A program made the translations under genes and the position numbers. A DNA stretch of 32,000 nucleotides from Sinorhizobium meliloti (GTDB lineage: Bacteria; Pseudomonadota; Alphaproteobacteria; Rhizobiales; Rhizobiaceae): NCBI RefSeq assembly GCF_017876815.1, contig NZ_JAGIOS010000002.1, positions 1,440,001 through 1,472,000 on the forward strand, given 5' to 3'. Positions within the stretch are counted from its first letter, which is position 1. The number at the start of each line of letters is the position of its first letter. The notes below the pieces were generated by a model that saw only the letters and a program-made list of their open reading frames with translations, did not search any database and had not been told where the DNA came from. This document shows positions 1,546-17,047 of this stretch, one piece after another.

Positions 1546-3432
1546 CTACACACACAGGTTTATGTTCATGGACACGGGATGGGGTTCGTACTTCGATATG
1601 GCGCAGACGAAATCCACTGACCCGTTGCCATTCGTTCCCGCGAGGTCGAAGCCAAGCCGCGGATAGAAATCCGACACCATTGCGTTGCGCTCTGTTGGTA
1701 TATAGCGCCCGCGAATGCTGACCACACCGGCTGACACCGCCTGCTCGATCAGGCTGTTCATTAAGCCCTGTTCAACGCCCCGCTCAAGGACGCGGCACGA
1801 TTGCAGCCAGGTGTCGATCTCCCATTCGGAACCCTTCTTGAGGACAATGACGACTCCGATCGTCCCGTGCTGTGCAAACTTATCGTCGAGCCTTATCTGC
1901 CAACCGATAAAGTTTGGGTCTCCCTGCATGCGCCGAACGTCTTCCTCGTTGTAGCGGCGGGTGGTCAGGTTGAACTGGTTGGACTTGTTGATGAGTTGAA
2001 CGATGCGCGGACGGCCTACCTCGTCGAAGGGTGAGATGGTCATCCGCATGTCTAGGGACTTCAGATACTCCTCATAATTGCCTACCCGCGCGCGGATCTC
2101 CGCAACTGCCGCACGCCCCCCGTAGCTGTTTGCCCGCGCCAGATCGTCGCAGTTCAGCGGCAGATGGTCGAAAAGACCTGAACCCGCGACGCGATCGATG
2201 AAGAAGGACGGATCCTCGCCTACCTCAATTGTGGAAACGAGCGGAAGCTCCCGTCGGACGCGTTCGCGTTCGGCAGGATTGTCGTCAACATAGGCAAGTG
2301 ACTCAAGACCGAGACCGAGTTTTTCGGCGATCGCACGAATATTAGTGGCCTTGTCGTCCCAATTGGCCTGAAACACGGCGATGTGCTCTTCTTTTAATAG
2401 CATATCAGGGTGCCGCCGGAACGGCTCACGCGCAACGGCATCGGTGTTTTTCGAACAGACGGCGAGGACTACTCCGCGTTTCCGGAGCCCCAGGACGAAG
2501 TTTTGAAACGCGACGAAGGCCTCTCCCTCTGCCGAATTCTGGCCGATCCGGATACCGGCGAGACCGTCGTCGCCAATGACGCCGCCCCAAAGCGTATTGT
2601 CGAGGTCGAGCACGAGGGCGCGGGCGCTCTTGCCGGTCATGGCAGCGAGAAGAGAAGCAATGTTGTCCGCCGCCAGTGGGCAGAGTTCAACGTTGAAGGG
2701 CACCTTCGCCGAATGATAGGCGATCGGGTCGAACCAGCGCTCAATACCGATCCGTGAAGCAAGGGCGGCTTGATCCCACATCAGCCACCGCCCCTCTGCA
2801 GCGCCATCGCCAAGCATCATGTTGACCCGCAGCCGGAACCGGGCGATCGAACCCGGCGTTGCGATGTCTGCGGAGGTCAGTTGTATGCACGGCGGCAGCG
2901 TCGCAATGATTGCCGGGCATCCGGTTTTCGATCGCGCCGCCTCGGCGATGGCGGAAGCGATCCTTTCGGCCTCCTGCACAGCCTCGTCCTCGGCAGCCCT
3001 GTCCAGCAGTGGCCGTTCCCCTTGGAGGGTGCTCTCATCCAGAACGGCAAGCACGGCATCGAGTCCCCGCTCGAAACAATTTTTGGCGGAGAATGCGAAG
3101 CCAGCTACCCCGTCGTATGGCGCTTCATGCGCCGAGACGAGGAGACCACGCGCCAAACCTGCCGCACCCAAGGGATCGCAGAGATAGCTCAGCGTCCGGT
3201 TTCCGAGGAGGCCGAGTTCGATGCGGGTGAAGCCGTTTCCCTTAATTTTTCCCAGCCGCTTGCCGAGGCGCTCGATCCTGAGCTGTTGGCGTGGGCCCAA
3301 CTGCTGGTTGGCCACCGATCTGGTGGCGGCGTAGTCGGGCATTTCGCCGCCGGCGGCAATTGCCTCGAGCTCGGCCACGCGTGCGGCCCAGTTCTCCTCA
3401 AGCGGCGGTCTCCACGGAAAGAACGTGTTCAT
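1546..3432 (-). CDS. HAD-superfamily subfamily IIIC / FkbH-like domain protein (putative carrier-protein loading enzyme)
   Basis: 628-aa ORF with ATG preceded by GGGGAGG. HAD motifs are present: LVLDLDNTLWGG (DxDxT), VCSKN, YVDDNPAE. The C-terminal part has a GNAT-like region containing WLQSCRVLERGVE, as in FkbH-like proteins. Confidence 0.9.
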   Translation of the reverse strand: MNTFFPWRPPLEENWAARVAELEAIAAGGEMPDYAATRSVANQQLGPRQQLRIERLGKRLGKIKGNGFTRIELGLLGNRTLSYLCDPLGAAGLARGLLVSAHEAPYDGVAGFAFSAKNCFERGLDAVLAVLDESTLQGERPLLDRAAEDEAVQEAERIASAIAEAARSKTGCPAIIATLPPCIQLTSADIATPGSIARFRLRVNMMLGDGAAEGRWLMWDQAALASRIGIERWFDPIAYHSAKVPFNVELCPLAADNIASLLAAMTGKSARALVLDLDNTLWGGVIGDDGLAGIRIGQNSAEGEAFVAFQNFVLGLRKRGVVLAVCSKNTDAVAREPFRRHPDMLLKEEHIAVFQANWDDKATNIRAIAEKLGLGLESLAYVDDNPAERERVRRELPLVSTIEVGEDPSFFIDRVAGSGLFDHLPLNCDDLARANSYGGRAAVAEIRARVGNYEEYLKSLDMRMTISPFDEVGRPRIVQLINKSNQFNLTTRRYNEEDVRRMQGDPNFIGWQIRLDDKFAQHGTIGVVIVLKKGSEWEIDTWLQSCRVLERGVEQGLMNSLIEQAVSAGVVSIRGRYIPTERNAMVSDFYPRLGFDLAGTNGNGSVDFVCAISKYEPHPVSMNINLCV

Positions 3433-3470
3433 AAAGCCGTGCCTCCCCGCGCCGGGGCGTTGATGATCGA

Positions 3471-3719
3471 TCAGTTCTGCTTGCGCTTGACCACGGCATC
3501 GATAAGGCTGCCGAGGTTCTTGAAACCTTGCACCTCAGCCGTGCTGAAGCGGACTGCGAGCTCCTGCTCGATCAGAACCATCAGTCTGACATTGGACAGG
3601 CTGTCCCATTGCGGAACGTCGCGGGCCGTCGTCTCCAGGGTGATCGGGCCGTCGTATTCATCGAACAGCTCACGGATCACGTCTGCGACTTGGGATAGAT
3701 AAAGTTGATGGTCAGACAT
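3471..3719 (-). CDS. acyl carrier protein (phosphopantetheine-binding)
   Basis: 82 aa and acidic, with the phosphopantetheine attachment motif QWDSLSNVRL. It lies 38 nt upstream of the FkbH-like gene on the same strand. Confidence 0.85.
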   Translation of the reverse strand: MSDHQLYLSQVADVIRELFDEYDGPITLETTARDVPQWDSLSNVRLMVLIEQELAVRFSTAEVQGFKNLGSLIDAVVKRKQN

Positions 3720-3780
3720 TTGTTCAACCTTGGTTTGGCGGCAGTTTTCAGGCCGTCGACAGCGCTTTGCGGTGCGCGAT

Positions 3781-5010
3781 TCAATTCCTTGCAGTTCGTT
3801 CGAGATAACTGTTTCGAAGCCGATAACTCTTCACCTCGGTCCGGATACGGCGCTCATAGGCCTCGACGTCTGCCGCCGTCAGCCTGTTTTCGCCCGTCGA
3901 AAGTGACGTAAGTGTTCGCCTGAGTAGCCCCGGGTTATAGACGTGCCCAGGATCACGAAAGTTGCCGAGGTCACCGGCAATCCTGGGGTCATCATCCCAT
4001 GCAAACACGCGCACATTGCGCAGGGTGTCTATCGATTGGACAAAGCATCGCCGCGACAGCAGAACCTCGTCCAGCAACGTCGCGCTTATGTCGCTCATGC
4101 GAAAATAGTAATTGGCGTAGGAGAGGATGGGTATGATGACGTCGACCTGCACGCCCTTCTCGACGAATTTCCGAATCCTCGGCACGAGCTGCTCATTCAC
4201 GGCACTGAAGCTCGCACATGTCCTGCCGCTCGGGGCGTCAACGACTGACCGATACTCTTCGATCACGGCCTGCAGTTCAGCCATTTGGGCGGGCATCTGA
4301 AAGGAGCGGTATTGCCTCTCCGTGAACTTGGCGTACCCTTCGTCGTCTTGCGCTTCGTAGCTCGTCTCCCCCAACAGGACCTTCCATGTTCGCCGCAATG
4401 ATTTCAGGTCGACCATTCGGATGTCGTCGCTGATTTCCTCGTCATAGAGATACTCTGGAAAGCCCTGGCGCATCTTTTCTGGGTCGAGAATGTACATCCA
4501 GTCAAACGTGATGATGATCCGCTTGGCTTGCGCGTTGATGGCGAGTTGATCGAGAACGATGTCGCGGTCCATCGGTCGGGGCCCGCCATAGCTGAGATTG
4601 TAGGCTACGACACTTCCGCCCAGCGCTGCGGATATGTCATCGGGGGAATACATGGCCGTGGTCGAGCCGCCGACAAGAAACGTGTTGATTCCCGATTGCT
4701 TCGAGACGACGTCTACCCACCGCACGACGACATCGCGCGGGACGTCATTGCGCGTCAGTTTGAGCCTCGCTCCCCAGCGGTAGATGTCGTATGGATCCGT
4801 CGCAATGACGATCGTCACGATCGAAAGATACCCCAGCCAGACAAGGCAAAAGGTCACGATCATTGGAAGGGCGGCGCGCCAGCGTGGCGAGAAGCTCGGC
4901 TTCTTACGGAGCGTACCCCTCCGGCCATGCACATGCTCCGCTCCCATCCATCGACCTGCGGCCGACGGTAAATGTGGATTTGTCGACGCGACAAGCATCT
5001 TTCCGACCAT
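3781..5010 (-). CDS. membrane-anchored hypothetical protein, possible DltD/SGNH-like partner of the MBOAT
   Basis: 409-aa ORF starting 3 nt after the MBOAT stop. It has a basic stretch followed by one TM helix (AALPMIVTFCLVWLGYLSIVTIVIA). A Ser motif (FLVGGSTTAM) lies early and DPGH (a D-x-x-H motif) lies near the C-terminus. The exact start is uncertain (M1, M5 or M22 of the ORF). Confidence 0.6.
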   Translation of the reverse strand: MVGKMLVASTNPHLPSAAGRWMGAEHVHGRRGTLRKKPSFSPRWRAALPMIVTFCLVWLGYLSIVTIVIATDPYDIYRWGARLKLTRNDVPRDVVVRWVDVVSKQSGINTFLVGGSTTAMYSPDDISAALGGSVVAYNLSYGGPRPMDRDIVLDQLAINAQAKRIIITFDWMYILDPEKMRQGFPEYLYDEEISDDIRMVDLKSLRRTWKVLLGETSYEAQDDEGYAKFTERQYRSFQMPAQMAELQAVIEEYRSVVDAPSGRTCASFSAVNEQLVPRIRKFVEKGVQVDVIIPILSYANYYFRMSDISATLLDEVLLSRRCFVQSIDTLRNVRVFAWDDDPRIAGDLGNFRDPGHVYNPGLLRRTLTSLSTGENRLTAADVEAYERRIRTEVKSYRLRNSYLERTARN

Positions 5011-5013
5011 GGC

Positions 5014-6582
5014 TTAAAATCCCTGATAGAGGAAAGGCGGCTGCCGCGAGACATAGTGCAGCGACGAGATGGTGAGGATAGCGGCAAAAGCAGCCCAGCC
5101 CCAGGAAGGTCGCCAGATGCTGCGCAGGAACGCGAAGCCGTAGCTCTCGTTTTCATAGGTCATCATGGCCGGCCGATAACGGCGCATCAGCTCCACGGCA
5201 TTTGGCATTAGATAGATGATTGAAAATGCACAGAACAGCATGAGCACGGGTTCACGCATTTCGAAGGCCGATGGGGCATCGAGTGATGCGCCGAACATCT
5301 GCGCATAAAGATGAAACGCGGCGCCGACGCTTTCGGAGCGGAACATCGCCAGGCTGAGGCAGATCAGCATAAAAAATATTGCCCGCTCCACGAGCAATCG
5401 GAAGAACGGCGATGTAGACTTGCACATGCGCTTGTATTTCTTGCTGCCCCTTATCTGCGCCTCGGCCGCAGACCAAACGCCTTGCATCAGGCCGAAGGCC
5501 ACGAAGGTCCAGGCGGCGCCATGCCATAGGCTGAGAACCTGAAAGTTGATTAGCATCGGCAGCCAGAGGCTGAGGACCTGTGTCGGCAGCGGCGAAAGCC
5601 GATGCACTGCGCAGTACCGCGTCCCCGCGATCGAAAGCGGCGTAAATAGGAAACGCGCGATCACGCGGGTCAGCGTCATGTTCCAGCGCCGGTAGTAATC
5701 GAGGATACCATTGGCTTTGAACGGCGAATAGAAGTTGAGCGGGTATCGCAGACCAAACATGCGCGCGAGGCCGAGCGCCATGTCGGAATAGCCTGAAAAA
5801 TCAAAATAGAGCTGCGCCATGTAGGAGAGAGCGCCGATCCAGGCATGTGCGGGATCCATCACCGCCCCGGCGCCGGCAGCGCCAAAGACAAGATCGACGG
5901 TTGGTGCAATATTGTCGGCGATGACGACCTTCTTGAACATGCCGATCGAGATGAAGGCGAGTCCCACGGCGATATTGAGCGGGTCGAAACTGATGAACTT
6001 CCTGGATTTTACCTGGGGATGGAATTCGTGCAGATAGGTAATTGGGCCGATGATCAACTGCGGAAAGAAGCTGACGAAAGCGCCATAACGGCAAAACGCC
6101 CAAAAACCGGACCTCAACGAACGAGTCCCTTCGAAAAATTCGACCACGCTCTTTTCGCGAACATAGGCATCCGCCAGAAAGGCCGCCTGATGGAACGTGT
6201 AGAATGAAATACCAGCCGGTATCGCCACGCCGGCAATATCGGTCAGGAAGTCATTATTGTCGCCAAGAAGAACTGTAACGATCTTGTATTTGAAGTAGCA
6301 CAGCGAGGCTATGTTGTATCCTTGGCCGCATCCATACAGCACTCTGCGGTATGGATTACTGTCGTCCATAGCAAGAAGCGCGTTGGATACCCCGAAATTG
6401 ACAAGCAGGGCGACCAGCAGCAGAAATACCGACGATATGCCGTAGGGAGCATAAAAGATAATTGACGCCGTAAAGATGACGAGTAGTGCCTCATTCCTGC
6501 CTCGCGTCAAAAGAGCAACATAAAACGCAATAAGTGTCACCGGCAGGAAGAGAAATAGGAAGAGTGGATCGATAAAGATCAT
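5014..6582 (-). CDS. MBOAT family O-acyltransferase (AlgI/DltB-like)
   Basis: Polytopic membrane protein with MBOAT motifs YYRRWNMTLTRVI and SLWHGAAW. I moved the start from the track value 6747 to the ATG at 6582 (MIFIDPLFLFLFLPV...). The upstream extension is non-membrane, covers an AT-rich intergenic stretch and contains a hairpin. Confidence 0.9.
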   Translation of the reverse strand: MIFIDPLFLFLFLPVTLIAFYVALLTRGRNEALLVIFTASIIFYAPYGISSVFLLLVALLVNFGVSNALLAMDDSNPYRRVLYGCGQGYNIASLCYFKYKIVTVLLGDNNDFLTDIAGVAIPAGISFYTFHQAAFLADAYVREKSVVEFFEGTRSLRSGFWAFCRYGAFVSFFPQLIIGPITYLHEFHPQVKSRKFISFDPLNIAVGLAFISIGMFKKVVIADNIAPTVDLVFGAAGAGAVMDPAHAWIGALSYMAQLYFDFSGYSDMALGLARMFGLRYPLNFYSPFKANGILDYYRRWNMTLTRVIARFLFTPLSIAGTRYCAVHRLSPLPTQVLSLWLPMLINFQVLSLWHGAAWTFVAFGLMQGVWSAAEAQIRGSKKYKRMCKSTSPFFRLLVERAIFFMLICLSLAMFRSESVGAAFHLYAQMFGASLDAPSAFEMREPVLMLFCAFSIIYLMPNAVELMRRYRPAMMTYENESYGFAFLRSIWRPSWGWAAFAAILTISSLHYVSRQPPFLYQGF

Positions 6583-6719
6583 ATCAAACCCAACCAAAAT
6601 ATCAAATTTGGTCCGAAGCCACTTATCTGAGGCTACGAATCCTACATATGATTTAATTCGTCTGTGTCTTGCGCTACCAACGCAGCTCGCTACGGAGCCT
6701 GAATAGCAATAAATTTTCT

Positions 6720-6741
6720 GGCGGCCATATTTGAGGCCGCC
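6720..6741 (-). terminator. GC hairpin GGCGGCC-N8-GGCCGCC, weak candidate terminator between the VOC gene and the MBOAT cassette
   Basis: Perfect 7-bp inverted repeat. On the - strand it is followed by AGAAAATTTATT, an interrupted T tract. It sits in an AT-rich intergenic region about 220 nt downstream of the VOC gene stop. Confidence 0.3.
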
Positions 6742-6962
6742 GAACAATTAAGAGACAACTATAGGTTACGCACTGAACCACGAGGGTTTCGGCAGAGCCT
6801 TCTATCGCAGCTAAAATCAGGGGTAAAAAAGCACGCATTTAACGAGATGTAAATAGGACAGTAATGCCTTCGGCTATGTGACGGCGACTTAAATCAAAGT
6901 TCAAACCTATGGCGGCTTGACGAAAATGCGTCGGCACCGCTCTCCTGAAGCTGGTGGTCCTT

Positions 6963-7430
6963 TCACGCCCAGCCGTTGAGGGGTGCGAGCGGATCGCCTT
7001 CGGCGCCCTCCACGGTCGCTCTTGTCATGAGTTCGACAACCAGGCCTGCCCGAGTGACTACGAAAGCAAGACGCCTCTTGAAAACCGCGCCATAGCAGGG
7101 CGCAACCACTACCATTGCGCCATCTGCCTCGAGTTTCGCCACGTCGTCCTCCAGACTGTCTGAGAACAGGCAGACGTGATCGAGGCCGCCGCCCTTGGCC
7201 AGCCGACTCGCGACGGGATTCGGCCCGTCACGCAACGGAGCCACCAGTTCTATCGGAACGCTGTCGAGATAAATAAGGAGCGCGCAGGACACATTCTGGG
7301 TCGGATCAATTGCAGGCGGCACAACCAGCCTGGCTCCCTGCTGCGTCCACGTTTTCAGCGCACGATCCATGTTCGGCACGACGAACCCATAGTGAAACAC
7401 TTTACGCGGATCGAACGTGATCTCTGCCAT
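6963..7430 (-). CDS. VOC family protein (glyoxalase / methylmalonyl-CoA epimerase-like)
   Basis: 155 aa. FHYGFVVPNMDRAL...IELVAP...GGGLDHVCLFSD...VVELM matches the paired beta-alpha-beta-beta-beta VOC pattern, including the metal-ligand His/Glu positions. Confidence 0.8.
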   Translation of the reverse strand: MAEITFDPRKVFHYGFVVPNMDRALKTWTQQGARLVVPPAIDPTQNVSCALLIYLDSVPIELVAPLRDGPNPVASRLAKGGGLDHVCLFSDSLEDDVAKLEADGAMVVVAPCYGAVFKRRLAFVVTRAGLVVELMTRATVEGAEGDPLAPLNGWA

Positions 7431-7478
7431 AGCTGGAGGCCCTGCTTGGGGTTAATGGCGTAATTTTTGCACGAGACG

Positions 7479-8160
7479 TTAGCCGACCCGGCGCAGCTGC
7501 GCGAGCGATTTCTTGCGGAGACTCCGCAGCGCCTTCGAGAGCGGCAGGCTCTCCGTCACGAGCTCGCAAGGATGCGCCACTTCGGAAGTGTCGGACCTTG
7601 CCGGGCGAGCGCCGCCCGCGGCGGGTTCGGCTGGCGGTCGTTCGTCAAGCCCCTATCCGGAGTAGAAGGGACAGGCCCGGCGGTGGTAACCCCTGATGCC
7701 GCGCAGGAGCGCCTCGAAGCCCGCAAGCGAGGTGATCGTGTTGACGTGGTCGACGGTGCGCATCGGCGGGCGAGCACGTCGGGATGCGGCTTGTGGAGGA
7801 TCTGGGCATCCGCTTGCTCGCACGCGAGCCGCGCCAGGTCATTGTTGGTCATGCGGCTGAGACAGCCGTACCGGATTGAAACATGGTCCTCCACCTGGCC
7901 GACGACCAGGACCCGCTTGCGCGTCTTCTCGCCGGAACCTCCTCGGGCGTGCGCTGACGCGCGCCATTATGCTGCTGATGCCGCTTTCGGTGAGAAGCGC
8001 GATGCCGGCGCGCGCACGAGCCATCAGTGCCGGACCCTCTTCGTGGTCGTAGGTCTTCAGCAGCTCTTCGAGTCTGAGGGAATGTCGGCAATCGAAATAG
8101 AGCGCCCTGCGGTCGAGCGGCAGGGAGAGGGGAGGCGTGCGGCTGGTTCGCTCGATAAGT
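7479..8160 (-). pseudogene. KpsC/KpsS-family (capsule polysaccharide Kdo transferase) gene remnant
   Basis: Reading the - strand in shifting frames gives [67 protein letters not shown], and [24 protein letters not shown]-stop-GL(T)ND. These are the conserved Capsule_synth blocks. Several frameshifts are required, and the Trp codon of the GWGL block is TAG (7653-7655). Confidence 0.7.
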
Positions 8161-8405
8161 CAGCTAAGCGACTCCACCCGGGTTCTCGATTTCTTGGCTC
8201 CGCCACGTCGATCAGATCGGTGCCACGATTGGGACCTCCACTTCGATCACGGAGATGCAACCACCAATTGGTTCGGAGGCCATCACCTCTTATGGGTCAA
8301 CGTATGCGATCGGTGCTCCAGGAAGGACGGACAGTTGATTCCTCTTCGGGAAGGCGAGAACATCGATCGTGCCACTTTTGGCCGGAAGATTTGTGCGGCC
8401 ACATG

Positions 8406-9656
8406 CTATGCCGCTATTTTCAACTTCGCCTGTTCCAGCGACCAATACTCCATGTCGAAGAGATCTGCCTCGCTGATCGGAGTGAAACAGCCATAGGCTT
8501 CCGCGGCGTTGATTACCCGGGCAGCCTGTTCGCAGAGATCTCCGCCGATTTTGGCCGCCTTGGCATTCGCGCCGATCGCGAACATGCCTTTGCCAAGCAC
8601 CAGAACGACCCGTGGATAGACGTCCAGTATCCGTTTCGGCTCGTTGGCGCGGGTCGCGTTTTTCTCAAAGTAGGCCCTGTAACGGTCCGCATAAGCGGCT
8701 AACGCGCTCTCGATTGCGCGTTCATCCGCATCGGCCCCGATGATCATCGGCCAGGGCTTGATACGAATTACGTGGTCTGGCGTCACCGTGCCGCGCAGAC
8801 TGATCGCCTCCACGTTCGGCTTCGATGTGAGTTCACGGATCGCTTGAGTCGAACGGTAATCGAGGAAGACACCCTTTGCGAAAGGCGACCCTTGCCGCAT
8901 CAGTGCTTTTTCCAGCCGCTTAGCAAGCCCCGCGTCTCTCTCGCCGTCATTGGGCTGCGGGCCCGTCAACGCCACGCCGGCGCGGGCGAGTTCCTCCTCT
9001 GCCAGTGTGACGAATTCGATCATCAGCTCATAGGAGGCACGGGCATCGTTTGCGAACGTGAAGAGGCCGTGATTTTCCAGCCATAGACCCTCGCAACCCG
9101 CATGCTCGCGATTGATGCGGTCCGCGGCGATGGAAAGATCGAAGCCGGGCATCACATAGGGCACATAGGCGAGGCGATCGCCATAGATGCGACGAACGGT
9201 GTCGCGCATGTTCGGTTGGTCGGCGAGCGCCAGGACCGCTGTCGCATGCGTGTGGTCGACGTAGGCAAAGGGTATGAAGGCGTGCAGCAGCGCTTCGACG
9301 GACGGGTTCGGCGCGTCCTTCTCGATGAGGCTGGCACGCAACAGTGAAACCATGTCCGGGTCTGAGAGTTTCGGGGTGTTACGGGCTTCGAGCAAAGGCG
9401 CGAGGCGCACGGCGGGCAGGCCCGGCGCCTCGATCGTGTCGAGGTCCCAGCCGCTTCCCTTGATGTGCATGAGGTCCTCTCCCTCGTCAGACCTTACCTT
9501 GACCGAGGTGTTGCCGCCGCCGTGCAGCACAAGGTCCGGGTCACTGCCGATGATACGGGAGGTGTAGATACGAAGGCCGAGGGCCTCGCTCTGTCCCGCG
9601 GCGCGTGCCGCCTCTACAAAACGTGCTGCGTCCTCGTCGTTCCAGCGGCTTTCCAT
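8406..9656 (-). CDS. class II aldolase/adducin-domain protein; equals the N-terminal half of bifunctional aldolase/short-chain dehydrogenases, SDR half missing
   Basis: Start re-set to the ATG at 9656 (MESRWNDEDAARF...); the track start at 9950 overlaps lsrB. Motifs: LVLHGGGNTSVK, HIKGSGWDL, VDHTHATAVLALA, PYVMPGFDL. The protein ends at ...MEYWSLEQAKLKIAA, which is where full-length RhaD-like homologues continue into a Rossmann SDR domain. Confidence 0.8.
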   Translation of the reverse strand: MESRWNDEDAARFVEAARAAGQSEALGLRIYTSRIIGSDPDLVLHGGGNTSVKVRSDEGEDLMHIKGSGWDLDTIEAPGLPAVRLAPLLEARNTPKLSDPDMVSLLRASLIEKDAPNPSVEALLHAFIPFAYVDHTHATAVLALADQPNMRDTVRRIYGDRLAYVPYVMPGFDLSIAADRINREHAGCEGLWLENHGLFTFANDARASYELMIEFVTLAEEELARAGVALTGPQPNDGERDAGLAKRLEKALMRQGSPFAKGVFLDYRSTQAIRELTSKPNVEAISLRGTVTPDHVIRIKPWPMIIGADADERAIESALAAYADRYRAYFEKNATRANEPKRILDVYPRVVLVLGKGMFAIGANAKAAKIGGDLCEQAARVINAAEAYGCFTPISEADLFDMEYWSLEQAKLKIAA

Positions 9657-9684
9657 GCGAATTGTCCTGTCTATGATTGAAGGT

Positions 9685-9710
9685 CGGCGGGCAACCGGAG
9701 CCGCCCGCCG
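9685..9710 (-). other. intercistronic GC stem-loop between lsrB and the aldolase gene
   Basis: CGGCGGGC-N10-GCCCGCCG, an 8-bp perfect stem, begins 12 nt after the lsrB stop. No U-tract follows on the - strand, so it is more likely an mRNA structure than a full terminator. Confidence 0.3.
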
Positions 9711-9721
9711 TTTGTGCGTGC

Positions 9722-10759
9722 TTAGAAGTCGAAGTTGCCAATGTTTTCCTTGGTGAAAACGGTGCGCTCCGGCAGCAGGATGATGCCGTTGCCATCGGCT
9801 TCGTAATCGTAGCCCTGTACCTTGTTGGCTGAGACTTCGACGGTTCCGACGCCGGGGATCTCCAGTTTCTCGCCGACCTTCATGGGGCCGTTCTTCAAGA
9901 CGTGATCGGCAACGAAGACCGAGATCTTGCCTTGCTGCGTGACGTCCCAAAGGCCGAAGCGCTGGATCGTGCCGCGCTCGATATAGGGCCGCATGACATT
10001 TGGGGTGGAGAAGCCGACGATAGTGACGCCCTCGGCGCGCTCCAAATTTTCCGCCGCCTGCGCCGCTGCCGGCAGGGCGTTTGCATCGGGCGCGATGATC
10101 GCGTCGAGGTCAGGATAGGTCTGCAGGATACTTTCAGCCGTCTGCAGTGATTTCTGAGCGTCGTTGTAGCCATACTGGGTGGTAACGATTTCCCAGCCCG
10201 GATGCTCCTTGGCGATCTTCGCCTTGGCGGCTTCCGCCCAGGCGTTCTGGTCGGTCACGGTCGGGCTCGAGTAGAAGAAGGCAACCTTGGCCTTTTCCTT
10301 CTTCACACCCTCGGCCGCCATGTCGACCAGAAGGCCGCCAAGCTGCTCAGGCGTGCCTTGGTTGATGTAATAGCTGCGGCAATCCGGGTTGACGTCGCTG
10401 TCCCAGGTCATGACGAGCACGCCGCGTTCCATGGCGCGCTTCAGCGCCGGGCACAGGCCGTCCGGAGAGACGGAGGAGACGATGAGCGCGTTGTAGCCCT
10501 GGTTGACGAAGTTGTTGATGAACTGGACCTGCCCGGAAACGCTCGGCTCCGTCGGGCCGTCATAGGTGACCTTCGCGCCGACTTCCTCGCCCGCCTTCAC
10601 CGCGCCGGCGCCGCCGGAGGTGAAGAAGCCGACACCCACCAGCTTGGGGATGAAGGCGATCTGGTTTTCTGCATGCGCAGCGCCCGAGGCGAGCATGGTG
10701 CCGGCCAAAAGCGCCGCGGCGAGGGCGCTCGATTTCATGATGGTCTTGATCATTCTCAT
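9722..10759 (-). CDS. lsrB: autoinducer-2 (AI-2) periplasmic binding protein LsrB
   Basis: Signal peptide (..[10 protein letters not shown]) followed by long blocks that I recognise as near-identical to enterobacterial LsrB: [94 protein letters not shown] overlap with the lsrD stop. Confidence 0.92.
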
Positions 10760-11769
10760 TCTCCTCCTGAAGTGACGGCCACCCGGTTCTGTCTCTGTTG
10801 CCGGGCGACCGCGATGAAATCGGCCAGCATCGCGCTTGCGTGGCGCAATGCGACCGCGACGACCAGCAACCCTCCCGAAAGTGCGCTGGAAATCTGGCTG
10901 GGGACGCCGGCCGCCTGCAAGCCCTGCTGCAGGTAACCGATGACGAAGGTGGCAAGCAGGGTGCCGAGGATGGAGCCCTGACCGCCATAGATGGAGGCGC
11001 CGCCGAGTACGGCCGCGGTGACGGCTGGCAGCAGCGTCGCCGAACCGAGGTCGACGCGCGCGGAGCCGAAATAGGCCGACATGACGAGGCCTGCGATGGC
11101 CGCCGAAACGCCGGTAATGACATAGGTGAACGTCTGGACGCGGCCGACCGGGATACCGGCGAAATGGGCAGCCCTTTCAGACTGGCCGGAAAGGAACACG
11201 GTGCGACCGAAGCGAGTGAAATGCAGAAGGACGATGAGCACGAGCGAGAGTGCGAGGAAGAGCGCGAGAGGTGCCGGCAGCCCAAGGAATTCGGCATAGC
11301 CGAAGGCGTTGAAGGCCTCCGGAAAGTTACCGATGCCCTCGTAGCCGCCCGCGCCGACGAGACCGGAGGCGACGGTCGCCGTACCCTGGAAAAGATAGAG
11401 GCTGCCGAGCGTGACGACGAGCGGCTGTATCTTGGACAGGTGGATGACCGTGGCGTTGAGGAGCCCGCAGAGCGCGCCGGTAACCAGAGCGAGCAAGATG
11501 GAAAGCGGAAGCGGCACGCCGTAGAATGTCGCGACGCCAAACATGATGGCAGTAAGGCCGATTACTGAGGCGAAAGACACGTCAATGCCGCCGGCAATTA
11601 TGACAAGGGTCAGCGGTAGGGCGACGATGCCGATCTGAACGAAGTCTGAGGTGCCGTAGATCAGGTTCGTAAGATTGAGGAAGCGCGGATTGACGAGACC
11701 GAAGATGAGAAGTTCTGCGACGAGCATGGCAAAGAGGGCGGTCTCCCAGCGGAAGATCAGCTTTTTCAT
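10756..11769 (-). CDS. lsrD: AI-2 ABC transporter permease LsrD
   Basis: 337-aa polytopic permease. [47 protein letters not shown] and [22 protein letters not shown] align with LsrD. ATGA overlaps at both ends. Confidence 0.9.
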
Positions 11770-12797
11770 CGGCTTGCCTCCACATTGCGCGCCGTCGTCG
11801 TCTCACGGGATTGTGTTGGGCCGCGCTCGTGCACCCCATAGCGGCGGGCACGGATGCGCCGGTCGATAATCTGGCGGATGCGGCCGTCGAGGAGCAGGAC
11901 CGAGAGCAGGATCGCGCCTGCAATGAAGTCATTCCAATAGGCCGGGATCTTCAAGAAAACGAGGGCACTGTCTATCGAAGTGATAAAGATAACGGCGGTG
12001 AAGACGCCAGCGACCGAACCGGTGCCTCCGAGAAGGCTCACGCCTCCTAGCACATTGACGGCGATGGCCTTCAGTTCGATGCCGTTACCGGCCTGATTTG
12101 GGATGAAGCCGATCTGGGCGGCGAAGACGAGGCCGGCGAGGGCGGCGCAGACGCCCGTTGCAACGAAAGCGGAAAACTGCACCAGCTTAACCGGTACACC
12201 GAGATGGTGGGCAGCCGCGCGGTTATCGCCGACTGCGTAGAAATTGCGGCCGAAGCGCGTCCTTCGCAGTACGATCCAGGCGAGCGCAACAAGTGCCAGC
12301 ACAACAATCGTGAGGACGGAGAAGCCGAAGCCGAGATTGGCGGCGAGCGCCTTCAGACCCTGCGGCAGGTCCTCGATCCAGCGCCCGCCCGTGAGGACGA
12401 GCATGATGCCGCGATAAAGTCCAAGCGTGCCAAGGGTGGCGACGATGGATGGAATGCCGAGATAGGCAACCATCAGACCGTTGAAGGCCCCGGCGACAGC
12501 ACCGGTTGCAAGGCAGAAGGCGATGGCGAGCGGCAGGCTCACGCCGGCTGTGAGCGAAAGGCCGAGCACCGCGGCGCTGAGGCCAAGCACCGAACCGCTC
12601 GACACATCGATATTGCGCGTCAGGATGACCATCATAGTCCCGAGCGAGATCAGCATCAGGACGAGGCTGTTGGAGACAACCACCGAGGCAGTGGCGCCGG
12701 ACAGATAGCCGGGCGCGGCCGTGCCGATCGCGGCGTAGGCGACGGCAAGCACTAGGATGAGCGTTGCGACGCGATTGCGGGAAAAGAGATCAAGCAT
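11766..12797 (-). CDS. lsrC: AI-2 ABC transporter permease LsrC
   Basis: Start re-set to the ATG at 12797 (MLDLFSRNRVATL...), which overlaps the lsrA stop (ATGCTTGA). LTRNIDVSSGSV, IVATLGTLGLYRGIMLVLTGGRWIE, FYAVGDN and QIGFIPNQAGNG match LsrC. The upstream 152 codons of the track ORF lie inside lsrA in another frame. Confidence 0.9.
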   Translation of the reverse strand: MLDLFSRNRVATLILVLAVAYAAIGTAAPGYLSGATASVVVSNSLVLMLISLGTMMVILTRNIDVSSGSVLGLSAAVLGLSLTAGVSLPLAIAFCLATGAVAGAFNGLMVAYLGIPSIVATLGTLGLYRGIMLVLTGGRWIEDLPQGLKALAANLGFGFSVLTIVVLALVALAWIVLRRTRFGRNFYAVGDNRAAAHHLGVPVKLVQFSAFVATGVCAALAGLVFAAQIGFIPNQAGNGIELKAIAVNVLGGVSLLGGTGSVAGVFTAVIFITSIDSALVFLKIPAYWNDFIAGAILLSVLLLDGRIRQIIDRRIRARRYGVHERGPTQSRETTTARNVEASR

Positions 12798-14307
12798 GGC
12801 GGCCCTCCGAGGCGCCGAAGGCGAGGCGGGCGATGGCGTCAACCGAGATCTGGTCCGTGAGTTTGCCGCCAGACTGGCCGAAGGCCATGATCTCGACCCG
12901 GTCGGCAAGCTGTTCGATCTCGTCGAAGTCGGATGAAATGAGGATGATGGCGACGCCGTCGGCGGCAAGCCGGCGGATGACGTCGTAGAGGTCGTTGCGT
13001 GCCGCCACGTCCACGCCGCGCGTGGGCTCGTCGAGAATGAGCACCTTGGGCCGAGCGGAAAGGCATTTGGCGAGCAGCACCTTCTGCTGGTTGCCACCCG
13101 AAAGACCGCGCGCCTCCTGGTCGGCGCCGGTGCACTTGATGCCCATGCTCGCGCGGAACCCATCGAAGACCTTACGCTCGGCGCCGGGCCGCAGAAAGAA
13201 GGGCAGGCGGTGCACCAGGTAGGACGAAACGTTCCAGGAAAGCGGTGCTTCAAGGAAAAGGCCGTGCTGCTGGCGGTCTTCAGGCAGGTAGACGAGGCCG
13301 AGGTCGATGCATATGCGCGGTGAGCGCTTCTTCAGTTCCGCGCCATCAAAGACGACGCTGCCCCCCATCTGCGGCCGAAGGCCGAAGAGCGTTTCGGCGA
13401 ACTCCGTGCGTCCGGCGCCCACGACCCCGGCAAGGCCGAGGATTTCGCCGGCCCGCACGTCGAGGCTGATATTGCGGAACCCTTCGCCGCTGAGGTCGCG
13501 CACGCTGAGACGCGGCTTGCCGATCTGCGAAACCTTGCGGCACACACGCTTCTTGTCGGCATCATCCGCGATCTGCACACGGCTCATCGCGTCGATAATC
13601 ACGGCGTCGCTGTAGCTGTCGAGCGGCCCGCTAAGCACGATCACACCGTCGCGCAGTACGCTGATTGTGCCGCAGATCTCGCGAATCTCGCGCAGCTTGT
13701 GCGAGATGAAGAAGATGCCGACACCCTGACTCTGGAGCTTGCGCACGCGCTGAAAGAGGGCGCTGGTCTCGAAGGGGGTTAGCGCCGAAGTCGGTTCGTC
13801 GAGTATCAGCACGCGCGCGTCACGTACGAGACCGCGCAGGATTTCGACAATCTGCCGCTCGGCGATTTCAAGGGCGGCGGCCTGCACGTCGAGGTCGAGC
13901 GAGACTGAGAGCTCGGCGACGAGTTGCTCGACGCGCGGCCTTAGCGCGCGGGGAGAGGCTGCAAGGCCAAGGCAGATGTTTTCCAGAACGCTCTGGTTGG
14001 GCAGGATATGCGCCTCTTGCGGCACCAGGTAAAGCCCGAGTTTCTGCGCGAGCGCCGGCGATGCATGGGTGAGGGCGCGGCCGTTGATCTCGATGGCGCC
14101 GGCATTAGACGCAATGACGCCCGACATGATTTTCATGAGGCTCGACTTGCCAGCGCCGTTGCCGCCGAGAAGCGCATGCACCTCTCCCGCGTGCAAAACT
14201 AGGGAAACACCTTTTAGCACCGGAACGGCACCGTAGGACTTCCAGACGTCCGTCAGCTTCGCGACCCTCCCGGCCACCGGGCTCCCAGCCATTCCGCACC
14301 TGTTCAT
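12790..14307 (-). CDS. lsrA: AI-2 ABC transporter ATP-binding protein LsrA (duplicated ATPase domains)
   Basis: 505 aa with Walker A GGNGAGKSS, signature LSGGNQQK, Walker B LILDEPT twice, and sugar-type tandem ABC architecture. First gene of the lsrACDB string. The true start may be the second ATG at 14292, which follows AGGTG. Confidence 0.9.
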   Translation of the reverse strand: MNRCGMAGSPVAGRVAKLTDVWKSYGAVPVLKGVSLVLHAGEVHALLGGNGAGKSSLMKIMSGVIASNAGAIEINGRALTHASPALAQKLGLYLVPQEAHILPNQSVLENICLGLAASPRALRPRVEQLVAELSVSLDLDVQAAALEIAERQIVEILRGLVRDARVLILDEPTSALTPFETSALFQRVRKLQSQGVGIFFISHKLREIREICGTISVLRDGVIVLSGPLDSYSDAVIIDAMSRVQIADDADKKRVCRKVSQIGKPRLSVRDLSGEGFRNISLDVRAGEILGLAGVVGAGRTEFAETLFGLRPQMGGSVVFDGAELKKRSPRICIDLGLVYLPEDRQQHGLFLEAPLSWNVSSYLVHRLPFFLRPGAERKVFDGFRASMGIKCTGADQEARGLSGGNQQKVLLAKCLSARPKVLILDEPTRGVDVAARNDLYDVIRRLAADGVAIILISSDFDEIEQLADRVEIMAFGQSGGKLTDQISVDAIARLAFGASEGRHA

Positions 14308-14532: not shown

Positions 14533-15480
14533 ATGGCGTCGGACAACGGAGAATGGAGTTATGCCGACACGGACGAGGAGATCCTCACCCGTATCGCTTG
14601 GTATTACTACAACGACGGGCTGACGCAGAACGAGATCGGCGAGAAACTCAACATGTCGCGCATCAAGGTGTCGCGTCTTTTGGAGAGCGGCCGACGCTCC
14701 GGCATTATTCAGGTGCGTATCAACTCGAGATATCAGGGCTGCCTGGCGCTCGAGCGGCAGATCAAGGAGCGCTACGGGCTGTTGGAAGCCTACGTGGTGC
14801 CGCAGCTTCCCGATCAGGATCCGAGTGATCGGCTGGGTCAGGCGGCCGCGCAATTTCTCATGCAACGGCTTCAGCCGGACGACCTTCTGGCGGTCGGTTG
14901 GGGCGCGACCGTGAGCAACACGATCCAGCGGCTCGGCCATGTCGCCAACGAGCGCAATATTGGCCTAGTCAGCCTGACCGGCGGCGTCGGCACTTATGTC
15001 GACGGCATGCGAACGGCCAACTGGGGCAGCAGCGTTCATCTCGTACCGGCGCCGCTCGTCGTGCGCGACCCGGATGTCGCACGCAACCTCTCTTCCGAAC
15101 CCGCCGTCGCCAACTTGCTCGAAATGGCGCTCAACGCGAGTTACCAGCTCGTTGGCATCGGTGAACTTTCGGCCACCTCCACTGTCGTGCGTTCCGGCTA
15201 TGTCAGCCCCGATGAGGTGGAGCCGTTGCGCCGCAAGGGCGCCGTCGGCGACATCCTCTGCCAGTTCTACAACGAATGCGGAGAGCCACTCGAGTTGCCG
15301 CTGCACGATCGAGTGATCGGCGTGAAGCTCGCGGCGCTGTCGCGCGCGGAAAAAGTCGTGGCGGCGGCGGGTGGCATCCATAAGGTACAGGCCATCCATG
15401 CAGCGCTTTGCGGAAAGGTCGTCGGCATCCTCATAACCGACGAGACGACCGCGAGCCGCCTCATCGAGCTCGAGGACTGA
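14533..15480 (+). CDS. lsrR: SorC/DeoR-type transcriptional repressor LsrR
   Basis: Start re-set to the ATG at 14533, preceded by GAGGGAG. N-terminal HTH (IAWYYYNDGLTQNEIGEKLNMSRIKVSRLLESGRRSGIIQVRI) plus a sugar-phosphate-binding SorC domain. Divergent from lsrA and followed by lsrK, as in E. coli lsrRK. Confidence 0.9.
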   Translation: MASDNGEWSYADTDEEILTRIAWYYYNDGLTQNEIGEKLNMSRIKVSRLLESGRRSGIIQVRINSRYQGCLALERQIKERYGLLEAYVVPQLPDQDPSDRLGQAAAQFLMQRLQPDDLLAVGWGATVSNTIQRLGHVANERNIGLVSLTGGVGTYVDGMRTANWGSSVHLVPAPLVVRDPDVARNLSSEPAVANLLEMALNASYQLVGIGELSATSTVVRSGYVSPDEVEPLRRKGAVGDILCQFYNECGEPLELPLHDRVIGVKLAALSRAEKVVAAAGGIHKVQAIHAALCGKVVGILITDETTASRLIELED

Positions 15481-15484
15481 GACC

Positions 15485-17047
15485 ATGAAGACTTCCTATA
15501 TGCTGGCCGTCGATGCCGGCACGGGCAGCGGCCGCGCGGTGATCTTCGACGAAAACGGCAACCAGATCGCCAGCGCCCAGCACGAATGGTGGCACCGGGC
15601 CGATCCGCGCTTTCCGGGCTCGATGGACTTCGATGTGGAGGGCAACTGGTCGCTGCTGTCACGCGCCATTCGCCAGGCGATCGCCGAATCCCGCATTGCA
15701 CCCGCCGAGATCCGTGCAGTCAGTGCCACCAGCATGCGTGAGGCGATCGTCGCCTATGACCGCAGCGGTCGGGAAATCTGGGCCTGCGCCAACGTCGACA
15801 GTCGCGCCGTGAGCGAGGTGCGCGACCTGAAGCGCGATTTTGCCGATCTGGAGCGGACGCTTTATACTGAGAGCGGGCAGACTTTCGCGCTCGGCACCCT
15901 GCCGCGCCTGCTCTGGCTGAAGCGCAACCTGCCGGACGTCTATGCTCGCATCCACAGGATCAGCATGCTGTCAGATTGGGTTCTGGCGCGTCTCTCCGGC
16001 GTCATCGCGAGCGATCCTTCCAATGCCGGCACGACCGGTCTCTACAGCCTAACGAAACGCAATTGGATGCCTGAGGCGCTGAGCAAGGCCGGCATGCGCG
16101 ACGATATCTTCCCGGAAAGCGTCGAGCCGGGCACGGTGATCGGCCGGGTCACCGAAAGGGCGGCTAGCGAGACGGGCATTGCCACGGGCACACCCGTTGT
16201 CATGGGAGGCGGCGACTGCCAGAGCGGGGCAGCGGCAGTCGGTGTCGTGAATGAAGGTGACTGCGCCGTGCTCGGGGGGACCTTCTGGCAGCAGGTGGTG
16301 AATGTCGGCCCGTCCGTGTCCGATCCGTCTATGGACCTGCGCATCAATCCGCATGTCGTCAACGGCCTAAACCAGGCCGAGGCGATAAGCTTCTTCGTCG
16401 GCATGGTAATGCGTTGGTTCCGCGACAGTTTCGGCGCGGAAGAGGTCGCGGCGGCCGGGCCCGGCGGCGATGCCTACAGGCTCCTCGAGGAGAAAGCAGC
16501 CGGGGTGCCGGTGGGCGCTTACGGCATCATTCCGGTCTTCTCCGACGTCATGCACTACGGCAACTGGTATCACGCCGCGCCTTCGCTTCTGAACCTTTCT
16601 ATCGACCCGGAAAAATCGGGCAAGGCCGCGATCTTTCGCGCCCTTCAGGAGAATGCGGCGATTGTCGCGGCCCGCAACCTTTCGGCTATCTTCAAGCTTT
16701 CCGGCAAAACGCCGGATAAGATCGTCTTTGCGGCCGGCGCGTCGAAATCAGCCCACTGGTCGCAGATCCTTGCGGATGCCACCGGCCTTCCGGTCGTAAC
16801 GCCCGTGGTCAAGGAGGCGACGGCGCTCGGCTGCGCCGCAGCGGCGGCAATCGGGATCGGCCTACGCCGCAACTTCGTCGAGGCGGCGGCGAGCTGGGTG
16901 CGCTGGGACAAGCGTTTCGAGCCGAATTTCGACCACAAGGTTATCTACGAGGCGGCGGGCGAGCGCTGGGCACGCGCCTACGCGCTGCAGCGACAGCTCG
17001 TGGACGAGGGCGTCACCACGGCCATGTGGAAGGCGCCAGGTCTCTGA
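15485..17047 (+). CDS. lsrK: autoinducer-2 kinase LsrK (FGGY carbohydrate kinase family)
   Basis: 520 aa. LAVDAGTGSGRAVIFDENGNQIA, PGSMDFD, WACANVDSRA, DPSNAGTTGL, VLGGTFWQQVVN, AAPSLLNLSIDP and the C-terminal LWKAPGL-type end match LsrK along the whole length. Confidence 0.92.
   Translation: MKTSYMLAVDAGTGSGRAVIFDENGNQIASAQHEWWHRADPRFPGSMDFDVEGNWSLLSRAIRQAIAESRIAPAEIRAVSATSMREAIVAYDRSGREIWACANVDSRAVSEVRDLKRDFADLERTLYTESGQTFALGTLPRLLWLKRNLPDVYARIHRISMLSDWVLARLSGVIASDPSNAGTTGLYSLTKRNWMPEALSKAGMRDDIFPESVEPGTVIGRVTERAASETGIATGTPVVMGGGDCQSGAAAVGVVNEGDCAVLGGTFWQQVVNVGPSVSDPSMDLRINPHVVNGLNQAEAISFFVGMVMRWFRDSFGAEEVAAAGPGGDAYRLLEEKAAGVPVGAYGIIPVFSDVMHYGNWYHAAPSLLNLSIDPEKSGKAAIFRALQENAAIVAARNLSAIFKLSGKTPDKIVFAAGASKSAHWSQILADATGLPVVTPVVKEATALGCAAAAAIGIGLRRNFVEAAASWVRWDKRFEPNFDHKVIYEAAGERWARAYALQRQLVDEGVTTAMWKAPGL

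Follow-up and report, generated by a model that had tools for sequence, protein, structure and literature searches.

In this study, we analyzed a 32-kb stretch of DNA (the window) from megaplasmid pSymB of Sinorhizobium meliloti, which carries an Lsr system for the interspecies signal autoinducer-2 (AI-2), and examined the role of a class II aldolase gene that follows lsrB in it. Positions 6900-10800 of the window matched plasmid p_2 of strain RCAM1115 at 99.9% and pSymB of strain 1021 at 95.5%. Of the bacterial routes for the removal and destruction of AI-2, the Lsr system is understood best, and its terminal step is known from enteric bacteria alone, where it is carried out by LsrF. S. meliloti is a model of a bacterium that makes no AI-2 yet imports the AI-2 of its neighbours. 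Based on lists of open reading frames (ORFs) and profile scans (Pfam and NCBIfam), we found lsrACDB with divergent lsrR and lsrK, as well as lsrG, which here follows lsrK and not lsrF; the locus contained no lsrF (Table 1). LsrB, LsrA and LsrK passed the NCBI equivalog cut-offs, and for LsrD, LsrR and LsrG the Lsr models scored best yet remained under cut-off. The slot that lsrF holds in enteric operons is occupied by the aldolase gene, which has become fixed in the Lsr module of Alphaproteobacteria.

The aldolase ORF extends on the minus strand from an ATG at 9656 to a stop codon at 8406-8408, encodes a protein ending in ...EQAKLKIAA, and lies 65 nt downstream of the end of lsrB in the same direction, with an AGGA ribosome-binding site 9 nt ahead of the ATG. 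Pfam Aldolase_II (PF00596) covered residues 34-221 with 85 bits (gathering score 22.2), whereas the best NCBIfam matches were models of bifunctional enzymes composed of an aldolase and a short-chain dehydrogenase/reductase (SDR), of which the protein covered the N-terminal ~428 of 685 positions at scores under cut-off (469.9 versus 639 bits for NF006192, and 240.6 versus 567.75 bits for TIGR02632). No SDR domain (adh_short) was found in the 416 residues by Pfam scan. Thus, the protein has the two-domain module of about 415 amino acids of the bifunctional family, and lacks its whole-protein score, its SDR domain and its rha-locus setting. A previous sequence-only reading of this DNA had described a co-directional 416-amino-acid class II aldolase after lsrB, its likeness to the N-terminal half of RhaD-like bifunctional enzymes, the presence of lsrG elsewhere in the locus and the lack of any LsrF-like ORF in the 32 kb, all of which agreed with our results.

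Table 1. Genes and features of the lsr region in the window (positions counted from the first nucleotide of the window).
Feature	Position	Strand	Basis
VOC/glyoxalase gene	6963-7430	minus	
Stretch without a clean ORF, ~975 nt	7431-8405		
Class II aldolase, 416 amino acids, stand-alone, two-domain	8406-9656	minus	Translation, Pfam Aldolase_II, model, catalytic residues
G+C-rich hairpin, 11-bp stem	9685-9710	minus	RNA fold
lsrB, AI-2 periplasmic binding protein	9722-10759	minus	NF011937, 633 bits (cut-off 384)
lsrD, permease	10756-11769	minus	Top match NF011612, 391 bits, under 500-bit cut-off
lsrC, permease	11766-12797	minus	Start MLDLFSRNR, agrees with 1032-nt coding sequence of CP050561
lsrA, ATP-binding cassette (ABC) ATPase	12790-14307	minus	NF011967, 731 bits (cut-off 586); longest ORF, start 15 nt further in according to the CP050561 annotation
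lsrR, SorC-family repressor, divergent from lsrA	14533-15480	plus	NF011947, 315 bits (cut-off 486); Pfam Sugar-bind
lsrK, AI-2 kinase	15485-17047	plus	NF008187, 861 bits (cut-off 528)
lsrG, isomerase (ABM fold) of phospho-4,5-dihydroxy-2,3-pentanedione (phospho-DPD, P-DPD), 104 amino acids	17088-17402	plus	Pfam ABM; NF007791, 106 bits (cut-off 135)

First, we found that the aldolase gene is intact, and that it is never fused to an SDR within the clade of stand-alone forms. In a search of 5.8 billion proteins, nearly all of the best 120 matches had 413-419 amino acids, with identity down to 58% (named sources: Shinella, Brucella pituitosa, Rhizobium, Kaistia, Thalassospira, Paracoccus, Thioclava and Tritonibacter), and near-identical 416-amino-acid proteins of S. 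meliloti formed a cluster with 147 members. In a comparative sample of 80 species-representative loci, all 42 relatives with at least 49% identity (L002-L043) were stand-alone ORFs of 410-424 amino acids, whereas those at 50% identity or less (L044-L081) were SDR fusions of 677-712 amino acids, except for one ORF of 537 amino acids. A neighbour-joining tree placed the stand-alone forms in one clade apart from the fusions, with the lsrB-linked ones monophyletic inside it. Compared with six orthologues, the ratio of nonsynonymous to synonymous substitution rates (dN/dS) was 0.08-0.21 for the aldolase, 0.07-0.21 for LsrK and 0.06-0.30 for LsrG, and the gene was also intact in strain 1021. These results bear on the alternative that the gene derives by decay from a bifunctional RhaD-like aldolase/SDR gene, having lost both the SDR half and its function. 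Such an origin was suggested by the NCBIfam models, which describe enzymes of ~680 amino acids matched in their N-terminal part only, and by the ~1 kb without a clean ORF 3' of the gene. However, the stand-alone relatives, the purifying selection and the preservation of the gene across strains speak against it, and no SDR remnant could be detected in the downstream stretch by tblastx against all loci. The possibility that this stretch is the lost SDR half was also ruled out by blastn against plasmids, which identified ~7523-8146 (minus strand) as a capsule-gene remnant: strain ml21 has an intact 'capsular polysaccharide biosynthesis protein' gene 3' of the aldolase, and a part of that gene is 87% identical to this segment. 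We therefore regard the remnant hypothesis as refuted, with hardly any residual likelihood. The 'broken hitch-hiker' considered by the sequence-only reading falls with it, given the conserved stand-alone clade, the purifying selection and the invariant catalytic residues described below; its remark that the SDR half is missing applies to the architecture and does not denote a truncation.

Downstream of the aldolase, strain ml21 carries an intact NTase/HEPN gene and then the capsule gene, export genes of the KPS-type ABC kind and rkpR. The lsr module therefore borders a strain-variable capsule region. Between strains, synonymous divergence (dS) of the aldolase was 0.21, well above that of lsrB (0.05) and lsrK (0.08). 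The VOC/glyoxalase gene next to this region was considered as a further module member and rejected, because no homologue was found near the aldolase in other lsr loci and strains differ at that place.

Second, synteny analysis revealed that the position of the aldolase is conserved. Using tblastn with the Lsr proteins of the window against the 80 loci, we found that all 29 loci in which an aldolase adjoins lsrB (L002-L029 and L031) had the order lsrG-lsrK-lsrR<>lsrA-C-D-B-aldolase (<> marks divergent genes). Their aldolases were 59-84% identical to the query and came from about 16 named genera of three orders, i.e. Hyphomicrobiales (Rhizobium, Shinella, Ferranicluibacter, Sinorhizobium, Ensifer, Pannonibacter, Kaistia and Arsenicitalea), Rhodobacterales (Paracoccus, Pacificibacter, Tropicimonas, Limimaricola, Tritonibacter and Thioclava) and Rhodospirillales (Thalassospira). 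Thus, the question raised by the sequence-only reading, whether lsrB-adjacent class II aldolase genes recur in other alphaproteobacterial lsr loci, could be answered positively for 29 species-representative genomes. In four further species the aldolase stayed beside lsrG or lsrK despite a different gene order or transporter. The order in Devosia limi was lsrBDCA<>lsrR-aldolase-lsrK-lsrG. Stappia, Hoeflea and Pseudotabrizicola (L034, L036 and L037) possessed orthologues of LsrK, LsrR and LsrG (51-61% identity) and the aldolase together with an ABC transporter other than LsrACDB, arranged as lsrK<>lsrR, the other transporter, RbsD/FucU and then lsrG-aldolase. Because the linkage survives both rearrangement and a change of transporter, the aldolase tracks the phospho-AI-2 processing genes and not the transporter. 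In addition, no gene 3' of the aldolase was conserved across loci, and therefore the aldolase is the terminal gene of the module. Identity to the query dropped in parallel for aldolase, LsrK and LsrG across lineages, as would be expected of co-inherited parts of one module. Among the three loci with another transporter, that of Stappia sp. (L034, 1845-11263), the only one annotated in detail, contained a permease, a binding protein, a single-domain ATPase, an RbsD/FucU protein and lsrG directly before the aldolase; loci of this type are candidates for a second type of AI-2 (or DPD-like) importer.

Third, the predicted structure and the residues of the protein are those of a catalytic class II aldolase. 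The AlphaFold2 model had a predicted local distance difference test (pLDDT) score of 86.8, and its N-terminal half matched 3m4r, FucA, AraD, YgbL, DrdA and RhaD in Foldseek, with probability 1.0 for FucA, AraD and YgbL. When modelled alone (residues 225-416; pLDDT 83.7), the C-terminal half matched class II aldolase-superfamily structures only, and weakly (E from 5e-3, TM-score 0.35-0.47), and the metal ligands were missing from it. At the sequence level, no significant internal duplication between the two halves was detected by hhalign (probability 2.3%), and a profile search of the C-terminal half for solved structures gave no sequence-level match. Judging from the models, the C-terminal half would be a degenerate second aldolase-like domain, and by analogy with tetrameric class II aldolases, in which an adjacent subunit completes the active site, it may play that subunit's part. 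A RhaE-type protein, whose N-terminal class II domain is catalytic and whose C-terminal aldolase-like domain is degenerate, is the best explanation of these observations.

Residue mapping by MAFFT and pairwise alignment showed that N49, S119, E121, H135, H137 and H196 of the aldolase correspond to N29, S71, E73, H92, H94 and H155 of FucA, and that the counterparts of the three histidines in RhaD are the metal ligands H141, H143 and H212. The match between E121 and E73 came from the pairwise alignment, whereas the multiple alignment moved the glutamate by two columns. The mapped catalytic residues were invariant among the 80 relatives, stand-alone and fused alike, as were GGGNTS, KGSG and the C-domain motif G289/T292/P293/D294/H295/R298/K300; the C-domain motif RGTVTPDHVIRIKP is common to the aldolase and the SDR fusions. 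Only four positions differed consistently between lsr-linked proteins and fusions (A17/Y, A77/P, S175/A and T290/V). All features by which the class II aldolase/adducin superfamily was assessed were therefore found, namely the profile, the three histidine ligands, and the acid/base glutamate together with the phosphate motifs.

Searches for LsrF gave the complementary picture. No LsrF was found in the window by tblastn with E. coli LsrF (E<=10), and Pfam scans revealed no DeoC/LacD-type aldolase among the other large ORFs of the window. The same tblastn search gave no LsrF in the 80 comparative loci, including the 33 lsr-linked aldolase loci, which had no LsrF within 10 kb. Among 79 Sinorhizobium plasmid records holding an LsrF-like match, none contained an LsrF equivalog; the best LsrF-like sequence on Sinorhizobium megaplasmids was a class I fructose-bisphosphate aldolase of ~31% identity (L088, 7980-8822, pSymB of S. 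meliloti R28). The unrelated polyol operon to which it belongs further encodes an aldo/keto reductase, a GlpD-like dehydrogenase, an FGGY kinase and a GMC oxidoreductase, and agrees with the 'putative Lsr system in Rhizobiales' of a previous report (PMC3420918). No Sinorhizobium occurred among the named best 120 relatives of Shinella LsrF either. These results are consistent with the gene order lsrBDCARKG, without lsrF, previously described for the loci of S. meliloti and R. sphaeroides (Rezzonico & Duffy, PMC2561040). More recently, the Xavier and Ventura groups (2021), among them the group that defined the LsrF step, noted that some LsrB-bearing bacteria lack LsrF and that the fate of AI-2 in them 'has yet to be determined' (PMC7828210). 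In our literature search, the LsrF structure paper was the sole result, and no paper tied class II aldolases to lsr.

Taken together, the intact gene under selection, its fold and catalytic residues, its linkage with lsrK, lsrR and lsrG, and the lack of a local lsrF suggest that the aldolase is probably, though by no means certainly, a non-orthologous substitute for LsrF in phospho-AI-2 breakdown. This was the first of two possibilities offered by the sequence-only reading, and it has gained strong comparative-genomic support from the 29 lsrB-adjacent and four rearranged genomes.

A possible mechanism can be outlined. It is established that LsrG converts P-DPD into 3-hydroxy-2,4-pentanedione-5-phosphate (P-HPD) or its hydrate, and that LsrF transfers the acetyl group of this product to coenzyme A (CoA), yielding dihydroxyacetone phosphate (DHAP) as well as acetyl-CoA (PMC8016206). 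In the pathway proposed here, AI-2 would be imported by LsrACDB, phosphorylated to P-DPD by LsrK and converted to P-HPD or its hydrate by LsrG. Class II aldolases use a metal that binds the phosphate/carbonyl/alpha-hydroxyl end of the substrate and expel the substituent on C3. P-HPD may be viewed as DHAP with an acetyl group on C3, whose phosphate would be held in the GGGNTS/KGSG pocket of the aldolase and whose C4 carbonyl and C3 hydroxyl would be chelated by the metal on His135/His137/His196. The aldolase would then cut the C2-C3 bond, probably on the C2 gem-diol, in which case the cut would be a normal retro-aldol reaction with water as the acyl acceptor, and the products would be acetate and a metal-stabilised DHAP enediolate that is protonated by Glu121. 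The electron sink would thus be Zn2+ instead of the lysine Schiff base of LsrF, and CoA would probably be unneeded. With the removal of P-DPD and P-HPD, LsrR could repress the operon again. That Alphaproteobacteria end AI-2 signalling in this CoA-independent manner, by a two-domain class II enzyme cleaving the LsrG product into DHAP and acetate, is a tentative proposal for which acceptance and doubt are nearly balanced, with doubt slightly ahead. If true, it would answer the question of what becomes of AI-2 in LsrB-bearing bacteria without LsrF.

Several points weigh against a replacement of LsrF. The substrate and the C2 product are inferred, and C-C cleavage is not guaranteed, because the superfamily also contains epimerases, dehydratases, decarboxylases and dioxygenases. 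An unlinked lsrF, which the sequence-only reading had considered within its second possibility, may lie on the S. meliloti chromosome, since our search covered plasmid records only. LsrF equivalogs (profile NF006081, cut-off 297 bits) were common in Alphaproteobacteria, and in five of the eight lsrF contexts examined the gene directly downstream encoded a class II aldolase paralogue, either fused to an SDR or stand-alone (L087, 12001-14908; L090, 10001-12904; L089, 4867-6947; L094 and L095, 7001-9940). In Shinella (two strains), Martelella and Pseudogemmobacter, this neighbour was an aldolase/SDR fusion of 648-651 amino acids, and in Sagittula a stand-alone aldolase of 397 amino acids, 45% identical to the query; FGGY or Dak kinases were also present in these clusters. 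Agrobacterium had a separate SDR gene downstream and a Dak1/Dak2 kinase upstream, and the lsrF genes of Rhodobacter capsulatus and Actibacterium were orphans. Because of the adjacency in five of the eight cases, the two families are not simple alternatives, may catalyze different steps and can function together in other pathways. The LsrF of Shinella reached 480 bits, and the LsrF proteins of Shinella and Sagittula were 68-72% identical to that of E. coli. None of the eight contexts lay within an lsr locus, and no lsrG was found by tblastn in those of Sagittula and Shinella sp. H4-D48, nor an ABM-domain gene in the Pfam tables of the others. The lsrF-aldolase-kinase clusters seem to represent a sugar or polyol pathway that is uncharacterised, and the name 'LsrF' is probably wrong there as that of an AI-2 enzyme. 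GlpD-like dehydrogenases were present in the Shinella and Sagittula clusters, and ABC transporters in most of them.

In a different division of labour, the aldolase would be a partner of LsrF and not its replacement, performing another step on an intermediate derived from phospho-AI-2, such as an epimerisation, an isomerisation or the cleavage of another tautomer or hydrate, with an LsrF-type enzyme encoded elsewhere or no thiolysis at all. It is favored by the LsrF equivalogs directly upstream of paralogous aldolases, by orphan equivalogs such as that of R. capsulatus, a genus reported to possess lsr (PMC2561040), and by the non-aldolase activities of the superfamily. On the other hand, LsrF was found within 10 kb of none of the 33 lsr-linked aldolase genes, Sinorhizobium provided no equivalog either on its megaplasmids or among the named best relatives of Shinella LsrF, an isomerase step is already covered by LsrG, and the FucA-type acid/base glutamate and all three metal-ligand histidines are retained. 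We consider such a partnership unlikely, although serious enough to be kept in mind.

The genome context outside lsr loci also needs to be considered. Two Paracoccus metagenome-assembled genomes (L030 and L032; aldolase at 10001-11242, ~60% identity) carried a member of the lsr-linked clade but had no lsr genes within 10 kb of it, which is a further point against a replacement of LsrF; the lsr genes may have been lost or moved elsewhere there. In L030, the aldolase was flanked by a HAD hydrolase and a beta-eliminating lyase. Moreover, six stand-alone relatives of about 50% identity (L041; L033, L038, L039, L042 and L043) were located directly after FGGY kinases 36-40% identical to LsrK, with a SorC regulator beside them and no lsrG. 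In view of this position, the wider stand-alone clade seems to supply the cleavage enzyme in sugar pathways that depend on a kinase. In Celeribacter ethanolicus (L041, 2731-12238) the order was substrate-binding protein-ATPase-permease-VOC-2-hydroxyacid dehydrogenase-kinase-aldolase; the VOC gene of this locus had no detectable relation to that of the window. It is thus conceivable that the enzyme forms DHAP from some unrelated phosphorylated (deoxy)ketose and moves with lsr by horizontal transfer, with no action on phospho-AI-2, and the edge of a variable capsule region, where the S. meliloti gene lies with a between-strain dS above that of lsrB and lsrK, would fit such a passenger. However, lsr loci hold no separate kinase or isomerase for another substrate, the linkage to lsrK, lsrR and lsrG has been kept through three gene orders and two transporter types, and the identities of aldolase, LsrK and LsrG fall together across lineages. 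Hence a mere passenger seems rather improbable to us. The sequence-only reading had reasoned that common stand-alone homologues linked to unrelated pathways would count against an LsrF-like role; stand-alone homologues are indeed common, yet the closest of them are linked to lsr genes, and those next in similarity lie beside LsrK-like kinases.

Replacement of LsrF also supposes that the aldolase is expressed with the operon. The 65-nt spacer folds into a hairpin, which lacks a U-run in this strain and was not called by a terminator scan. All 29 lsrB-aldolase loci had a hairpin at the same position, with G+C-rich stems of 9-13 bp whose sequences were unrelated between lineages, and T-rich sequence followed it in a few of them (Pannonibacter, Thalassospira and Arsenicitalea). 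With a strong hairpin between the two genes in each of these loci, read-through is an assumption, and the hairpin could lower it. By analogy, it fits the common stem-loop after a binding-protein gene that sets differential expression in ABC operons, and it may set the ratio of lsrB to aldolase expression. The spacer length, the shared strand, the ribosome-binding site and the hairpin without a U-run make co-transcription with lsrACDB plausible, albeit indirectly. A literature search by the locus tags SMb21013-21019 found no expression data.

With regard to the remainder of the window, the other large ORFs have no relevance to phospho-AI-2; according to Pfam, they encode a PGA_cap protein, an MBOAT acyltransferase and an ABC transporter of the oligopeptide type. 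The MBOAT gene (5014-6747, minus strand) adjoins two large ORFs (3781-5010 and 1546-3432) without Pfam matches, and an acyl carrier protein is annotated in the same neighbourhood (1546-6747, minus strand) of a related record; this region is probably a polysaccharide or lipid O-acylation cluster with no relation to lsr. The lsrK gene is intact in the window (520 amino acids), whereas that of the 99.9% identical RCAM1115 (L001, 20586-22147) contains a 1-nt indel, and the gene table of RCAM1115 has no lsrK protein entry. An ISRm2011-2 insertion (~1 kb) in RCAM1115, at ~2670 of the window, is absent here.

For a whole bacterial class, the conserved lsr-linked aldolase is a concrete candidate to fill the missing step. 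Should this be confirmed, it would represent a non-orthologous displacement inside a signalling operon and a new reaction type of the class II aldolase fold, the cleavage of a 1,3-dicarbonyl phosphate. It would also call for a correction of annotation, because the genes are now labelled 'class II aldolase', 'RhaD' or 'short-chain dehydrogenase', and would sharpen the genome-based prediction of AI-2-quenching bacteria.

The enzyme was also compared with known systems. Among solved structures, sequence comparison detected only the N-terminal class II aldolase domain of Thermoplasma acidophilum (PDB 3m4r; E = 1e-40, residues 30-221), with 35% identity in the Foldseek alignment and a TM-score of 0.87 normalised to the target; it represents an N-domain solved alone, from an uncharacterised protein. 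The OtnC/YgbL-type decarboxylases (PDB 6voq and 6vop) are structural neighbours as well, but they belong to another subfamily, are single-domain and are not lsr-associated. They free DHAP from a DHAP skeleton with a carboxyl group on C3, and thus provide a precedent for the expulsion of a non-aldehyde C3 group. E. coli FucA and RhaD, which are single-domain class II DHAP aldolases, share the fold and the equivalents of N29, S71, E73, H92, H94 and H155, whereas identity to them is just 18-23% and the lsr aldolase has an extra C-terminal domain of ~190 amino acids and an insertion at ~84-110.

The closest characterised relatives are the RhaEW proteins of Chloroflexus aurantiacus (Caur_2283) and Bacillus subtilis (YuxG), which convert rhamnulose-1-phosphate into DHAP and lactate in vitro (PMC3870299). 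Their RhaE domain is likewise a two-domain aldolase of ~415 amino acids, which the lsr aldolase matched end to end (model positions 1-428), and the catalytic and C-domain motifs are invariant in both groups. In contrast, the RhaE domain is fused to a lactaldehyde dehydrogenase, whereas the lsr aldolase has no SDR, forms a separate clade and occurs in an lsr and not a rha setting. Finally, LsrF of E. coli (b1517) shares with the aldolase the slot after lsrB in lsrACDB, the divergent lsrR/lsrK and the presence of lsrG and, under our proposal, would also share the LsrG product as substrate, DHAP as product and the ending of LsrR de-repression. The two proteins have no sequence similarity (tblastn, E<=10): LsrF is a class I enzyme with a triose-phosphate isomerase barrel of the DeoC/LacD type (PF01791), a Schiff-base lysine and CoA as co-substrate, whereas the aldolase has the metal-dependent class II alpha/beta fold and its C2 product would probably be acetate, not acetyl-CoA. 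If the proposal is true, they would be analogous enzymes, one of class I and one of class II, for the same breakdown step of a quorum signal, similar to the two classes of fructose-bisphosphate aldolase.

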